A model generated the notes under the pieces. It ran no database searches. It was given only the letters and a program-made list of their open reading frames with translations, and was not told where the DNA came from. This document shows, piece after piece, positions 20,752 to 58,116 of a stretch of DNA of 64,000 nucleotides; the stretch's first letter is position 1; every line of letters begins with the position of its first letter. The position numbers and the translations under genes were made by a program. Location of the stretch: assembly GCF_041886205.1 (NCBI RefSeq), contig NZ_CP169029.1, one strand, 5' to 3'. The stretch is from Escherichia coli. Its GTDB lineage: Bacteria > Pseudomonadota > Gammaproteobacteria > Enterobacterales > Enterobacteriaceae.

Positions 20752-22089
20752 TTAGTTTGGCAGCGTGCGATCTGGCGTCGTCACCGTACTGGCCGTTTGT
20801 GCCGTTGCCCCCTGCGGCGCAGATTGCATCGGATGCGCAAGGAAATAATTGCGCAGGCCTTTGTAAATGGCTTCTGCCAGCTGTTGTTGGTAATCGTCGC
20901 TCGCCAGCAAACGTTCTTCGCTGTTGTTGCTGATAAAACCGGTTTCGACCAGTACTGATGGGATATCCGGCGAACGCAGAACGCCAAGGCTGGCATGTTC
21001 TGGCCGACGTTTATGTATTTCGCCAATGCGTTGCAACTGACTGATCATACTGGTCGCTACATCATACCCTACCCGCTGGGAATGACCGAACTGTAAATCC
21101 AGCACCGCCTGGCTTAAATAGGGGTCAGACTGACTGTTCGCCAGCACATCACCCGCCCCGCCCAGCAGCTCCGACTGTTTCTCGTGCTGCTCCAGCCAGC
21201 TGGCCATTTCGCTGTTGGCGCGACGGTTAGAGAGCACCCATACAGAAGCGCCAGTCGCACTGCGGTTCGGTGCGGCATCAGCGTGAATCGACACGAGGAA
21301 ATTGGCGTTTTGCTTACGTGCCACATCGCTGCGCCCCATCACCGAGATAAAGTAATCACCGTCACGGGTTAAAACGCCCTTAAACATCGGATCGTCATTG
21401 AGCAAAGTACGCAATTTACGCGCGATGGCGATGGTGACATTTTTCTCCCGCGTACCGCCGGGGCCGATAGCGCCAGGGTCCTGACCGCCGTGTCCGGCAT
21501 CAATAGCGATGATAATTTTATCGCCAGTGTTAGCCGTCGCGCGCGCAGCCGGTCGCGTTACCGTATTACTGCTGATAACACCCGTAGTGCGGTTACTTTC
21601 CGTTTTAAACGGATTGCGCGCCGGTTCGCTGACGCGCGGTGCGACAACCGTAGGCGTTTCAACGCGTTTCGCAACCACAGGCGGCGGAGGAGGCGGTGGC
21701 GGCGCATCGGCGTTAATCGTAAAGACGACAGTGTAATTGCTGCCATTCTGCCGCTTCACCGCTTCGGTTTTACCATTTTCGGTAAGATCGACCACCAGCC
21801 GTAGCGTTTGTGCATCTTTAGGCGTTCCGGAGCGAATCGCCTTCACCAGATTATTACCGCTGAACAACAACGGCAGTCCCTGAATCACGCCCGTTTGTTT
21901 GATATCGAGCGCCACGGTGCGTTTGCTTTGATGGCTAAACGCATAATCAGGATCGCCAATAAAACTCAACGTTATCCGCGCCTGTTGATTACCGTTAGAA
22001 ACCTGAATATCAGAGAGCGTCGCGGCACCCACCTGCGCGCACAGCAGCAGCAACGTCGCTACCAACCAATTTCTGATGCGATACATCAT
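20752..22089 (-). CDS. amiB: N-acetylmuramoyl-L-alanine amidase AmiB
   Basis: Track ORF trimmed to [10 protein letters not shown] start (445 aa); contains an 8-proline run. Confidence 0.9.
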
Positions 22090-22107
22090 CCCGCCACCTT
22101 TCAAAGG

Positions 22108-25495: not shown

Positions 25496-25571
<76 letters not shown>

Positions 25572-25606
25572 TTGGGTGGTCTGTGCCTTACAGCACTTTC
25601 AAATTT

Positions 25607-25682
<76 letters not shown>

Positions 25683-25718
25683 TTGGGTGGTCTGTGCTTT
25701 GTAGCACTTTTCAAATTT

Positions 25719-25794
<76 letters not shown>

Positions 25795-33978: not shown

Positions 33979-34956
33979 TTATGCCCGGTCAACGCTAAAG
34001 GCGATGACTTCAGCCAGTGTCTCCGCGCCCAGCGCCAACATCACCAGACGATCAACGCCTAATGCCACGCCGGAACAGTCAGGCATACCGACTTTCAAGG
34101 CTTCAATCAGATTCTGGTCAATGGGGTGCTGCGGCAAACCACGCGCCGCTCGCTTACGGTTATCTTGTTCAAAGCGTTGTTGCTGCTCACGGGCATCCGT
34201 CAATTCATGGAAACCATTCGCCAGCTCAATACCTTTATAATAAACCTCAAAGCGTTCAGCGACCCGATGATCTTCGGTACTGATTTGCGCCAGTGATGCC
34301 TGGCTGGCTGGAAAGTGGTACACAAAGGTCGGTTTTTCTTTACCAATATTTGGCTCTACGCCAAAGGTAAACAGCAATTGTAGCAACGTGTCGCGGTCTT
34401 CTTCGGTATCAGCAACGTTGCTCAAATCCAGTTTCGCTGCCACTTCCCGCAGTTGCGTTTTGTCGGCAGAGAGTGGGTCAATTTCCAGATAACGCAAGAA
34501 AGCTTGTTGATAAGAAAGGCTTTCTGCTGCCGGGCAGTCCAGCACCTGTTGTAAGAGATCGTCCACCTCGTTCATCAACCGGTACATATCATAGTGCGGT
34601 CGATACCACTCAAGCATAGTGAACTCAGGGTTGTGATAACGCCCCATCTCTTCATTACGGAAGCTGCGGCACAGCTGGAATACTGGCCCACAACCAGCAA
34701 CCAGCAGGCGTTTCATATGGTATTCAGGGCTGGTCATTAACCAGAGATTCATCCCCTGCGAATGCCCGGGGCCAACGAAACGTGTCTCAAACGGGACCAA
34801 ATGAATATCGGTTACCGTCGCCTGGCTCATACAAGGCGTCTCCACCTCCAGCACTCCACGATCGGCAAAGAAACGACGGATCTCCGCCATAATCGCCGCG
34901 CGTTTTAATAAGTTAGGAATGGATGCGCTCGGCTGCCAGGATGCCGTTTCGCTCAT
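33979..34956 (-). CDS. epmA: EF-P (R)-beta-lysine ligase EpmA
   Basis: Track ORF trimmed to [10 protein letters not shown] start (325 aa); class II lysyl-tRNA-synthetase-like catalytic domain. Confidence 0.9.
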
Positions 34957-41339: not shown

Positions 41340-41906
41340 TTACTTCACGCGAGAGACGTATTCACCAGAGCGGGTATCCACTTTGATGACTTCGCCGATT
41401 TGTACGAACAGCGGAACTTTAACCACTGCGCCAGTAGACAGGGTAGCCGGTTTGCCGCCAGTACCTGCGGTATCACCTTTCAGGCCCGGATCGGTATCAA
41501 CGATTTCCAGTTCAACGAAGTTCGGCGGAGTAACGGAGATCGGCTGACCATTCCACAGAGTTACGATACACTCTGCCTGATCCAGCAGCCATTTAGCGTT
41601 GTCGCCAATTGCTTTTGCGTCAGCAGACAGCTGCTCGAAAGTTTCGTTGTTCATGAAGTGCCAGAACTCACCGTCGTTGTACAGGTAAGTCAGGTTCATA
41701 TCGACAACATCAGCGCCTTCAGCGGAATCAGTAGATTTGAAGGTTTTTTCTACGCGAGTACCGGTCAGCAGACGACGCAGTTTAACGCGAGCAAATGCCT
41801 GGCCTTTACCCGGTTTTACGAATTCACTCGCTTCAACCGCGTAAGGTTCGCCGTCTAACATGATTTTAAGACCAGCACGAAAATCGTTGCTATAGTACGT
41901 TGCCAT
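41340..41906 (-). CDS. efp: elongation factor P
   Basis: 188 aa ORF with the modified-lysine loop KPGKGQAF. Confidence 0.95.
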
Positions 41907-41947: not shown

Positions 41948-42976
41948 ATGGCGCATATTGTAACCCTAAATACCCCATCCAGAGAAGATTGGTTAACGCA
42001 ACTTGCCGATGTTGTGACCGATCCTGATGAACTTCTGCGTCTTTTGAATATAGACGCGGACGAAAAACTGTTGGCCGGACGCAACGCCAAAAAGCTGTTT
42101 GCCCTGCGTGTGCCCCGCTCATTTATCGATCGCATGGAGAAAGGCAATCCGGACGATCCGCTTTTGCGTCAGGTACTTACCTCGCAAGATGAGTTTGCCA
42201 TCGCGCCCGGATTCTCCACCGACCCGCTGGAAGAACAGCACAGCGTAGTGCCTGGTTTGTTGCATAAATACCACAACCGGGCGCTTTTGCTGGTCAAAGG
42301 CGGCTGCGCGGTAAATTGCCGTTATTGCTTCCGTCGCCACTTCCCTTATGCCGAAAATCAGGGCAACAAGCGTAACTGGCAAACTGCACTTGAGTATGTT
42401 GCTGCGCATCCGGAACTGGACGAGATGATTTTCTCCGGCGGCGATCCGCTGATGGCGAAAGATCACGAGCTGGACTGGTTGCTCACACAACTGGAAGCCA
42501 TCCCGCATATCAAACGTCTGCGGATTCACAGTCGTCTGCCGATTGTGATCCCGGCACGCATCACAGATGCGCTGGTTGAACGCTTTTCACATTCTACGCT
42601 GCAAATCTTGCTGGTGAATCACATCAACCATGCCAATGAGATAGATGAAACATTCCGTCAGGCGATGGCTAAGTTGCGCCGGGCGGGCGTTACTTTGCTG
42701 AACCAGAGCGTTCTGTTACGTGGTGTGAACGATAACGCACAAACGCTGGCAAACCTGAGTAATGCGTTGTTCGATGCCGGCGTGATGCCGTATTACCTGC
42801 ATGTGCTCGATAAAGTACAGGGCGCGGCGCATTTTATGGTGAGTGATGACGAAGCACGGCAGATTATGCGTGAGTTGCTGACACTGGTGTCCGGATATCT
42901 GGTGCCGAAACTGGCGCGAGAAATTGGCGGCGAACCCAGCAAAACGCCGCTGGATCTCCAGCTACGCCAGCAGTAA
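41948..42976 (+). CDS. epmB: EF-P lysine 2,3-aminomutase EpmB
   Basis: 342 aa ORF with radical-SAM CxxxCxxC motif (CAVNCRYCFRR). Confidence 0.9.
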   Translation: MAHIVTLNTPSREDWLTQLADVVTDPDELLRLLNIDADEKLLAGRNAKKLFALRVPRSFIDRMEKGNPDDPLLRQVLTSQDEFAIAPGFSTDPLEEQHSVVPGLLHKYHNRALLLVKGGCAVNCRYCFRRHFPYAENQGNKRNWQTALEYVAAHPELDEMIFSGGDPLMAKDHELDWLLTQLEAIPHIKRLRIHSRLPIVIPARITDALVERFSHSTLQILLVNHINHANEIDETFRQAMAKLRRAGVTLLNQSVLLRGVNDNAQTLANLSNALFDAGVMPYYLHVLDKVQGAAHFMVSDDEARQIMRELLTLVSGYLVPKLAREIGGEPSKTPLDLQLRQQ

Positions 42977-54968: not shown

Positions 54969-55044
54969 GCCCGGATAGCTCAGTCGGTAGAGCAGGGGAT
55001 TGAAAATCCCCGTGTCCTTGGTTCGATTCCGAGTCCGGGCACCA
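54969..55044 (+). tRNA. pheU: tRNA-Phe (GAA)
   Basis: 76 nt exact match to E. coli tRNA-Phe (gcccggatagctcagtcggtagagcaggggattgaaaatcccc...cacca); located after yjdC as pheU is in E. coli. Confidence 0.95.
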
Positions 55045-55241
55045 AATTCATATCAACGGACCTCCACGGAGGTCCGTTTTTCGTTTCAGAACGCCACAAT
55101 TTAAGCGTTCTACCTACAAATCAATTCTACCGAACTCAACCAGATTCCCCCCACATCAACCCCATTGTGTGGGTATAATTGCGGGCATACCCCAGTTCGA
55201 CAGAATTTGTACCCTCTTTAACGCATTCAGAAGGCTATACT

Positions 55242-56504
55242 ATGGCACTGACTGACGCAAAAATCCGGGCTGCAAAGCCCACTGACAAGGCTTATAAACT
55301 CACTGACGGGGCTGGCATGTTCCTACTGGTTCATCCTAATGGTTCCCGTTACTGGCGTCTCCGTTATCGTATTCTGGGTAAGGAGAAGACTCTGGCACTT
55401 GGTGTGTATCCAGAAGTTTCTCTCTCCGAAGCTCGTACAAAACGGGATGAGGCCCGAAAACTGATTTCGGAGGGGATTGACCCTTGCGAACTGAAAAGAG
55501 CTAAAAAAGTAGTCCCTGATTTACAACTCTCTTTTGAACATATTGCACGACGCTGGCATGCCAGTAATAAACAATGGGCACAATCACACAGCGATAAAGT
55601 ACTCAAAAGCCTCGAGACACACGTTTTCCCCTTTATCGGCAACCGGGATATCACAACACTCAGTACCCCGGACCTGCTTATCCCTGTTCGTGCTGCAGAA
55701 GCTAAACAAATTTATGAAATCGCCAGTCGTCTGCAGCAAAGAATATCTGCTGTAATGCGTTATGCCGTACAGTCTGGCATCATCAGATATAACCCGGCTC
55801 TGGATATGGCTGGTGCATTGACCACGGTAAAACGCCAGCATCGCCCTGCACTGGATCTTTCACGCCTGCCTGAACTTCTGTCGCGTATTGACGGTTATAA
55901 AGGCCAGCCTGTCACCCGACTGGCAGTTATGCTGAATTTACTGGTTTTTATTCGTTCCAGTGAACTCAGATACGCCCGCTGGTCTGAAATTGATATTGAC
56001 AATGCCATGTGGACTATTCCAGCCGAACGCGAACCTCTGCCTGGCGTAAAATTCTCACACCGGGGCTCCAAGATGCGAACACCACATCTTGTGCCACTCA
56101 GCAAACAGGCTGTAGCCATACTGGCAGAACTACAGACATGGGCTGGTGAAAATGGTCTGATCTTTACGGGAGCACATGACCCGCGTAAACCAATCAGTGA
56201 AAATACTGTAAATAAAGCCCTGAGGGTGATGGGGTATGACACAACCCAGGATGTCTGTGGCCATGGATTCCGGGCGATGGCGTGCAGTGCATTGATTGAA
56301 TCAGGTTTGTGGTCCCGCGATGCTGTGGAACGTCAGATGAGCCATCAGGAGCGTAATGGTGTACGTGCTGCGTATATCCATAAAGCAGAACATCTGGAAG
56401 AACGGCGACTGATGTTGCAATGGTGGGCCGATTTTCTGGATGCGAACCGGGAGAAGGGTATCAGTCCGTTTGAATATGCAAAAATTAACAATCCATTAAA
56501 ATAG
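55242..56504 (+). CDS. P4-type tyrosine integrase (tRNA-associated genomic-island integrase)
   Basis: 420 aa ORF starting MALTDAKIRAAKP, 198 nt downstream of tRNA-Phe; C-terminal catalytic region with HGFRAMACS (H-x-x-R) and nucleophile Tyr in RAAYIHK; appears full length. Confidence 0.85.
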   Translation: MALTDAKIRAAKPTDKAYKLTDGAGMFLLVHPNGSRYWRLRYRILGKEKTLALGVYPEVSLSEARTKRDEARKLISEGIDPCELKRAKKVVPDLQLSFEHIARRWHASNKQWAQSHSDKVLKSLETHVFPFIGNRDITTLSTPDLLIPVRAAEAKQIYEIASRLQQRISAVMRYAVQSGIIRYNPALDMAGALTTVKRQHRPALDLSRLPELLSRIDGYKGQPVTRLAVMLNLLVFIRSSELRYARWSEIDIDNAMWTIPAEREPLPGVKFSHRGSKMRTPHLVPLSKQAVAILAELQTWAGENGLIFTGAHDPRKPISENTVNKALRVMGYDTTQDVCGHGFRAMACSALIESGLWSRDAVERQMSHQERNGVRAAYIHKAEHLEERRLMLQWWADFLDANREKGISPFEYAKINNPLK

Positions 56505-56590
56505 TAAGCAGTCCGGGCAATCAGCCCGGACTGCTGGTGATGCTGCCAACTTACTGATTTAGTGTATGATGGTGTTTTTGAGGTGCTCCA

Positions 56591-56866
56591 GTGGCTTCTG
56601 TTTCTATCAGCTGTCCCTCCTGTTCAGCTACTGACGGGGTGGTACGTAACGGCAAAAGCACCGCCGGACATCAGCGCTATCTCTGCTCTCACTGCCGTAA
56701 AACATGGCAACTGCAGTTCACTTACACCGCTTCTCAACCCGGTACGCACCAGAAAATCATTGATATGGCCATGAATGGCGTTGGATGCCGGGCAACTGCC
56801 CGCATTATGGGCGTTGGCCTCAACACGATTTTACGTCACTTAAAAAACTCAGGCCGCAGTCGGTAA
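56591..56866 (+). CDS. insA: IS1 protein InsA
   Basis: 91 aa [43 protein letters not shown]. Confidence 0.95.
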
Positions 56867-57288
56867 CCTCGCGCATACAGCCGGGCAGTGACGTCATCGT
56901 CTGCGCGGAAATGGACGAACAGTGGGGCTATGTCGGGGCTAAATCGCGCCAGCGCTGGCTGTTTTACGCGTATGACAGGCTCCGGAAGACGGTTGTTGCG
57001 CACGTATTCGGTGAACGCACTATGGCGACGCTGGAGCGTCTTCTGGGCCTGCTGTCGGCCTTTGAGGTCGTGGTATGGATGACGGATGGCTGGCCGCTTT
57101 ATGAATCACGCCTGAAGGGAGAACTGCACGTTATCAGCAAGCGATATACGCAGCGCATTGAGCGGCATAACCTGAATCTGAGGCAGCATCTGGCAAGGCT
57201 GGGCAGGAAGTCACTGTCGTTCTCAAAATCGGTGGAGCTGCATGACAAAGTTATCGGGCATTATCTGAACATAAAACACTATCAATAA
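56785..57288 (+). CDS. insB: IS1 InsB frame (expressed as InsAB' transposase by -1 frameshift)
   Basis: 167 aa ORF overlapping insA in the -1 frame, ending ...[19 protein letters not shown]. Confidence 0.9.
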
Positions 57289-57354
57289 GTTGGAGTCATT
57301 ACCCGCTTTGCTTTAGCGAGAACTGGTCTTTTATTCGCACTCAGGAGTACATGT

Positions 57355-58116
57355 ATGAGGATTTGCAGCGACCAACCTTGTATTGTTTTATTGACTGAAA
57401 AAGATGTCTGGATAAGGGTGAATGGGAAAGAACCTATTAGCCTTAAAGCTAACCATATGGCGTTATTAAATTGTGAAAATAATATTATCGACGTCTCCTC
57501 TCTTAACAACACTTTGGTTGCTCATATTAGTCACGACATCATCAAAGATTACCTCCGGTTTCTGAATAAAGATCTCTCGCAAATACCAGTATGGCAACGT
57601 AGCGCTACGCCCATACTCACCCTGCCATGCCTGACGCCAGACGTCTTTCGCGTTGCCGCGCAACACAGCATGATGCCCGCAGAAACTGAGTCAGAAAAGG
57701 AACGAACACGCGCATTATTATTCACGGTGCTATCCCGTTTTCTCGACAGTAAAAAATTCGTTTCATTAATGATGTATATGTTACGTAATTGTGTAAGTGA
57801 CAGCGTTTATCAAATTATTGAAAGCGATATTCACAAAGACTGGAATCTTAGTATGGTAGCCAGTTGTTTATGTCTTAGCCCAAGTCTGTTAAAGAAAAAG
57901 TTGAAAAGCGAAAACACCAGTTATAGCCAAATAATCACCACCTGCCGCATGCGTTATGCCGTAAATGAATTAATGATGGACGGTAAAAATATCTCTCAGG
58001 TATCACAGTCCTGCGGCTACAACAGTACGTCGTACTTTATTTCTGTCTTTAAAGACTTCTACGGTATGACGCCGCTGCATTATGTTAGTCAGCACAGAGA
58101 ACGCACTGTCGCCTGA
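57355..58116 (+). CDS. adiY: AraC-family regulator AdiY
   Basis: 253 aa ORF MRICSDQPCIVLLTEKDVWIRVNGKEP matching AdiY; begins only 51 nt after the IS1 end. Confidence 0.9.
   Translation: MRICSDQPCIVLLTEKDVWIRVNGKEPISLKANHMALLNCENNIIDVSSLNNTLVAHISHDIIKDYLRFLNKDLSQIPVWQRSATPILTLPCLTPDVFRVAAQHSMMPAETESEKERTRALLFTVLSRFLDSKKFVSLMMYMLRNCVSDSVYQIIESDIHKDWNLSMVASCLCLSPSLLKKKLKSENTSYSQIITTCRMRYAVNELMMDGKNISQVSQSCGYNSTSYFISVFKDFYGMTPLHYVSQHRERTVA

Follow-up and report, generated by a model that had tools for sequence, protein, structure and literature searches.

An eight-proline run at the start of the AmiB linker in Escherichia coli: EF-P-dependent translation, length alleles and genomic setting

The window analyzed here is a 64-kb stretch of an Escherichia coli genome. 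On its minus strand, positions 20752..22089 code for the N-acetylmuramoyl-L-alanine amidase AmiB, a cell-division (cell-separation) enzyme of 445 amino acids (plus the stop codon) that begins MMYRIRN. It belongs to the NCBIfam equivalog NF007751, with residues 1-445 matching profile positions 1-445 at 978 bits against a cutoff of 532. In 5,425 E. coli genomes the gene carries the annotation amiB. Direct reading and translation place an uninterrupted run of eight prolines at 21679..21702, in frame on the minus strand and encoded, from 21702 down to 21679, by CCG CCA CCG CCT CCT CCG CCG CCT. The earlier note had reported the run as PPPPPPPP with a CCG/CCT-rich make-up; the coordinates are exact and the codons bear out the composition. 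Its numbering as codons 135-142 has to be changed. The accepted start is the ATG at 22089, which makes the run residues 130-137; 135-142 is obtained only from an in-frame TTG upstream at 22104. Codon 130 is also the tract start in Martens 2015 (PMC4402525).

With at least three consecutive Pro codons in a translated reading frame, amiB has the motif of EF-P-dependent stalling. No other real gene in the window has three or more prolines in a row, the remaining PPP hits being in antisense frames of known genes. A plus-strand ORF at 21490..21804 (104 amino acids, Arg-rich across the tract) was rejected as a gene; it is the mirror image of the proline codons within amiB. The length of the proline run in amiB is far beyond chance. 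AmiB has 28 prolines among 445 residues, and in 200,000 shuffles of the protein the longest run never exceeded six. Runs of eight or more prolines would be expected about 1e-7 times in AmiB and about 2e-5 times in an E. coli-sized proteome.

AmiB combines an AMIN fold at its N-terminus with an Amidase_3 fold at its C-terminus. Pfam PF11741 (AMIN) matches residues 27-112 barely above its cutoff (20.8 versus 20.5 bits), and PF01520 (Amidase_3) matches residues 194-413 (E=2.8e-48). An AlphaFold2 model built on 45 homologues places the AMIN domain, a beta-sandwich that serves in targeting, at residues 24-127 (21709..22020, minus strand), with pLDDT >90 over these residues and the last strand at 118-127. 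The catalytic domain, assigned from PF01520 and model superposition, is modeled with confidence at residues 192-420 (20830..21516, minus strand). Between the two lies a linker, residues 128-191 (21517..21708, minus strand), that is predicted to be disordered; the model has no secondary structure here, and pLDDT is 58 in the block 131-140 and about 40-55 in the blocks spanning 141-190. In Foldseek searches the catalytic part of the model matched 8c0j with a target-normalised TM-score of 0.97, the model aligned with E. coli AmiC (4bin) over 414 columns, and its N-terminal part matched the B2 domain of PilQ (4aqz). The only solved AmiB structure, 8c0j, covers residues 190-422; as it starts at 190, the linker was left out of the crystallised construct. 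In the model the eight prolines begin two residues after the AMIN fold and open a predicted disordered linker of about 64 residues.

Natural AmiB variants of 414-420 amino acids are found in E. coli and Shigella (P0007-P0013, P0015 and P0019). They keep the eight-proline run and are missing 25-31 linker residues downstream of it; in one example VVAPR is joined directly to ATANTGDK. Some of these variants are encoded on contigs as large as a complete genome. The linker of AmiB thus tolerates large in-frame deletions.

The tract has been noticed before as an obstacle to ribosomes. Martens 2015 (PMC4402525) identified the amiB run as the longest proline run in E. coli and showed that ribosome footprints in E. 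coli profiling data peak sharply at the tract; an efp mutant is not mentioned. Sieber 2024 (PMC11611912) used an asymmetry score that compares ribosome occupancy before and after a motif. At the PPP positions of amiB the score is 1.0-1.24 in wild-type BW25113, which is not the strain of this window though the K-12 tract also has eight codons, and it rises to 6.7-10.5 in the efp deletion mutant (PMC11611912, Supplementary Data 3B). These values are as strong as that for the PPP of cadC in the same mutant background, 10.8 (PMC11611912). That the amiB prolines are an EF-P-dependent obstacle, which the earlier note had put forward from established knowledge, agrees with these published values.

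The same supplement gives asymmetry scores of 1.0-2.9 at the amiB PPP positions when efpL is deleted, and of 3.8-6.7 when EfpL is overproduced in the efp deletion mutant (PMC11611912, Supplementary Data 3B). Loss of efpL alone thus reaches 2.9 at the first amiB PPP positions, and overproduction of EfpL lowers the score in the efp mutant from about 10.5 to about 6.7, which suggests that EfpL also helps on the amiB tract. The efpL gene is outside the 64-kb window. In the papers and supplements searched, no AmiB protein-level data were found for efp, epmA or epmB mutants, and no entry for amiB was found in the supplements of Elgamal 2014 and Elgamal 2016. A lowered output of AmiB is therefore inferred from ribosome density.

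The window also encodes EF-P and two of the enzymes that modify it. The minus strand has epmA at 33979..34956, whose product, EF-P-(R)-beta-lysine ligase, is paralogous to lysyl-tRNA synthetase and matches NCBIfam NF006828 with its residues 1-325 on profile positions 1-325 (604 bits, cutoff 264). Elongation factor P itself (efp, 188 amino acids) is encoded on the same strand at 41340..41906; it scores above the cutoffs of TIGR00038 and NF001810, contains the three Pfam EF-P domains, and has Lys as residue 34 in the loop VKPGKGQAF. On the plus strand, epmB at 41948..42976 codes for the radical SAM enzyme, of the lysine 2,3-aminomutase type, that supplies EF-P with beta-lysine (NCBIfam TIGR03821, EFP_modif_epmB; 534.8 bits, cutoff 369.3). 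The (R)-beta-lysine produced by EpmB is attached to Lys34 by EpmA, and EF-P modified in this way accelerates the formation of Pro-Pro bonds. All three genes are full-length equivalogs, and the bacterium encodes a modifiable EF-P together with these enzymes; epmA, efp and epmB are intact, as the earlier note had them. Calling the modification machinery in the window complete was an overstatement, as the gene for the third enzyme, epmC, is absent from the genes of the 64-kb window. EpmC is the Lys34 hydroxylase; it is encoded elsewhere and is dispensable.

Gene order over most of the window is that of other E. coli. Positions 3-55158 are colinear with strain XH990 at 98.9% identity, and amiB stands in the block tsaE-amiB-mutL-miaA-hfq. 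From the amiB tract it is 12.3 kb to epmA, 19.6 kb to efp and 20.2 kb to epmB. The intervening region holds, on both strands, nnr, queG, three tRNA-Gly genes, orn, rsgA, psd (annotated as asd), mscM and yjeM, so that amiB is neither adjacent to nor in an operon with any of the EF-P genes: at least nine unrelated genes and three tRNA genes lie in the 12.3-20.2 kb between them. The three tRNA-Gly(GCC) genes are in tandem at 25496-25794, between queG and orn, which is the ordinary arrangement of the region.

The usual E. coli order ends in this window at the tRNA-Phe gene (54969-55044). Past it lie an intact gene for a tyrosine integrase (55179-56504) and an IS1 copy (insB-like ORF, 56785-57288), which abut adiY at 57355-58116, followed by adiC, eptA, basR, basS and proP. 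None of the 5,426 complete E. coli genomes covers more than 71% of the junction (54969-58116). The best-matching genome, XH990, led us to expect cadC within the window; direct reading ruled this out, as the two sequences diverge after tRNA-Phe. The cadC-cadBA block, which follows tRNA-Phe in XH990, is absent from the 64-kb window, and with it cadC, a classic EF-P client, has been removed. The genes that continue up to adiA in the K-12 gene order are presumably missing at the junction as well. We take the junction to resemble the cad 'black hole' deletions of Shigella and enteroinvasive E. coli.

To see how the tract varies within the species, complete E. coli genomes were searched with a 191-nt probe across it, which matched in 5,425 of 5,426. 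The remaining genome had no match, and two matches were on plasmid records. When a six-codon allele served as the probe, the genomes split into 4,572 (~84%) with eight-codon spacing and 852 (~16%) with six-codon spacing, one genome being an outlier match. Among the 852, 711 are at most one mismatch from the PPSPPPM type, a group that includes PPSPPPV, and 141 are more distant, including those with an uninterrupted run of six (P6).

The eight-codon allele (P8) is found in the K-12-like strain OV2, in BL21 and in this window. P6 occurs as CCG CCA CCG CCT CCG CCA in UPEC-774U and 24AR0376, and as a second allele, CCG CCA CCG CCG CCG CCA, in SCPM-O-B-9504. Two six-codon alleles are interrupted: PPSPPPV, in the protein cluster represented by P0002, and PPSPPPM, in AR_0089 and DA61218, to which an O25:H4 strain is 100% identical and "FDA strain Seattle 1946" 99.5%. 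These derive from P6 by single substitutions (CCG to TCG, GTG to ATG). At the other extreme, the bovine strain EC42405 (NZ_CP043414.1, locus L008, 701-898) has eleven codons, CCG CCA CCG CCG CCA CCG CCT CCA CCG CCG CCA. It is the only complete E. coli genome found with P11, the longest run seen in the species here. Synonymous changes retain the prolines, as in CCT versus CCC at codon 137 and in the other codon orders of the P6 and P11 alleles.

The earlier note had also proposed that the repeat is a potentially length-variable tract. Comparison across strains bears out the variation, with runs of 6, 8 and 11 codons in E. coli. The length is thus not invariant and the stall is not independent of EF-P, either of which would have spoken against the note. 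A slippage-prone tract is another matter: the repeat is imperfect, and the variants are in frame and lineage-bound. Tandem Repeats Finder describes an imperfect period-9 repeat of 2.9 copies with 82% matches and a score of 38, below the default threshold; with CCG, CCA and CCT mixed, this is not a long near-perfect tandem repeat of a short unit. Synthetic P7 and P9 probes in the K-12 background, which cover backgrounds within two mismatches, gave nothing at 99% identity or above in the 5,425 genomes, and their best matches were all P8 with a three-base gap. Only three length classes are seen, rather than frequent recurrent change among close relatives. The alleles differ by whole codons and amiB is an intact coding sequence in every locus fetched, so length does not switch the gene on and off. 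The six-codon alleles carry linked flanking substitutions, which makes them old lineage markers. To judge from these sequences, tract length is polymorphic in the form of a few old, lineage-bound, in-frame alleles and does not appear hypermutable.

We also examined how far the run extends beyond E. coli. Among the 120 closest proteins, most Citrobacter AmiB sequences keep P8, and Citrobacter-like sequences include rare singletons with P7, P9 or P10 or with a single Leu or Ala interruption. A broader sample consisted of 97 diverse AMIN-amidase representatives, clustered at 50% identity and with both domains present. None of the 97 has a long proline run at the AMIN-linker junction. At the aligned position the closest of them (79% identity) reads PPPPSAP, one distant representative has a P6 run elsewhere in the linker, and the representative of the cluster that includes a Yersiniaceae AmiB is without a run. 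Across 15 orthologues the linker sequence is not conserved and cannot be aligned, though its length is similar. From these comparisons the run appears to be recent and specific to its clade, within a linker that evolves fast; the prolines of the run have nonetheless been held through synonymous change.

Taken together, the tract is very probably a lineage-specific polyproline at the linker start that causes a stall relieved by EF-P, changes length rarely and in frame, and shares the window with the EF-P genes by coincidence. Eight successive Pro-Pro bonds would form slowly, and ribosomes would pause on the amiB tract. EF-P, beta-lysylated at Lys34 by way of EpmB and EpmA, would sit beside the P-site tRNA-Pro and speed bond formation. 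With EF-P present the flow of ribosomes through amiB should be nearly normal, and in its absence far fewer ribosomes would pass the tract; AmiB output would then be expected to fall. AmiB is functionally redundant with AmiA and AmiC, so that a shortage is phenotypically buffered. The lineage alleles may have arisen by rare in-frame gain or loss of codons and then stayed stable. The most likely role of the prolines in the finished protein is that of a stiff, extended spacer immediately behind the AMIN fold. Against such a role, six-codon alleles, for the most part interrupted, serve about 16% of E. coli genomes well, and there are AmiB variants without 25-31 linker residues and distant orthologues without a long run. 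It follows that neither the precise length nor the purity of the run can be essential.

The pause could instead have been selected, giving the N-terminal part time to fold or be exported once the AMIN domain has emerged, or tying AmiB synthesis to EF-P activity or proline supply. Polyproline motifs in E. coli are enriched -2 to +9 residues after domain ends (Qi 2018, PMC5811046), and a tract just after a domain end fits that enrichment. The footprint peak in E. coli data, reported without mention of an efp mutant (PMC4402525), and the conservation of P8 in Escherichia and Citrobacter through synonymous changes point the same way. However, a wild-type asymmetry of about 1.0-1.2 indicates that the tract hardly lowers throughput as long as EF-P is there, more distant AMIN-amidase orthologues lack the run, ~16% of E. 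coli genomes have it shortened or interrupted, and a structural role explains the proline conservation equally well. We consider a selected pause unlikely. Another possibility is that, when EF-P is limiting, the stall uncouples translation from transcription and brings about Rho-dependent polarity on mutL, miaA and hfq, as an attenuator-like sensor. Loss of EF-P does lead to Rho-dependent premature termination on polyproline mRNAs with rut sites (Elgamal 2016, PMC5021804). The stall in the efp mutant is strong, and amiB is directly upstream of mutL-miaA-hfq on the same strand. Internal promoters in amiB, mutL and miaA drive the downstream genes, though, and would buffer polarity. Neither amiB nor mutL was found among the candidates of PMC5021804 in those parts of its text and supplements that were searched, and no values for mutL, miaA or hfq expression in the efp deletion mutant were found in the Sieber 2024 supplements. 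Polarity of this kind strikes us as improbable. We would give only an outside chance to the wider idea that the amiB run is an uncoupling point sensitive to EF-P or proline, at which Rho lowers the expression of mismatch repair, tRNA modification and Hfq; the six-codon and interrupted alleles (e.g. O25:H4) would then weaken the link.

Frequent replication slippage that alters AmiB function or expression, as at a contingency locus, would account for the 6-, 8- and 11-codon classes in E. coli and for the 7-, 9- and 10-codon singletons in Citrobacter-like sequences. Yet the repeat is imperfect, with mixed CCG, CCA and CCT (TRF score 38), every variant is a multiple of three and keeps the frame, none of 5,425 genomes has P7 or P9 on a background at most two mismatches from K-12, the six-codon alleles are old markers with linked flanking substitutions, and P11 is confined to a single genome. 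This possibility is already largely refuted and is extremely improbable. Nor is there much to recommend a functional reason for amiB being near efp, epmA and epmB, such as a regulatory neighborhood shared by an EF-P client and its helper. All four genes do lie within 21.3 kb, and in most E. coli the classic client cadC is about 14 kb from efp on its other side. However, the four belong to different transcription units, lie on both strands and are separated by many unrelated genes. PPP occurs 79 times in the E. coli proteome, so about one PPP gene is expected in a window of about 60 genes, and one is close to chance; that the one present should also have the longest run is a coincidence at the level of a few percent, noticed post hoc. 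Only a narrow clade has the polyproline run, and the order tsaE-amiB-mutL-miaA-hfq is much older than that clade. With cadC absent from this window, the neighborhood has not been maintained either. The closeness that the earlier note had pointed out spans 12.3-20.2 kb and separate transcription units, and we hold a functional basis for it to be almost certainly wrong. The co-location with the EF-P genes looks like a coincidence that reflects ordinary E. coli gene order.

For the amiB run itself, the analysis adds little beyond confirmation. Its EF-P-dependent stall is already known from the literature, as a textbook-style case of extreme polyproline stalling, and the EF-P genes have been characterised in detail. 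A modest addition is the allele census, with ~84% of genomes having eight codons, ~16% having six that are often interrupted, and one having eleven. These natural alleles could serve as controls on how the length and purity of a run set EF-P dependence in vivo.

Several known systems resemble the amiB tract in part. In its architecture of signal sequence, AMIN domain, linker and Amidase_3 domain, the AmiB of this window is like AmiC (PDB 4bin) and the AmiB catalytic domain with EnvC (PDB 8c0j). Among AMIN-domain amidases, a long polyproline at the AMIN-linker junction is confined to the AmiB of Escherichia and Citrobacter. Simple-sequence contingency loci share with the amiB tract a short-period codon repeat that differs in copy number between strains; the amiB repeat, by contrast, is imperfect and changes only in frame, its alleles being rare, bound to lineages and without on/off switching. 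The domain-boundary motifs of Qi 2018 (PMC5811046) are a further parallel, with the AmiB tract, two residues after a folded domain, inside the -2 to +9 zone; that study is statistical and without mention of AmiB, and a folding benefit for AmiB would be conjecture. The closest likeness is to CadC (PPPIP), the classic EF-P client. Both have consecutive Pro codons and a strong rise in asymmetry in the efp deletion mutant, and the EF-P encoded in this host is of the beta-lysyl-Lys34 type with EpmA and EpmB, as for other E. coli EF-P clients. Unlike CadC, AmiB has no known regulatory consequence of its run, and where CadC has three consecutive prolines AmiB has eight, the longest run in E. coli.
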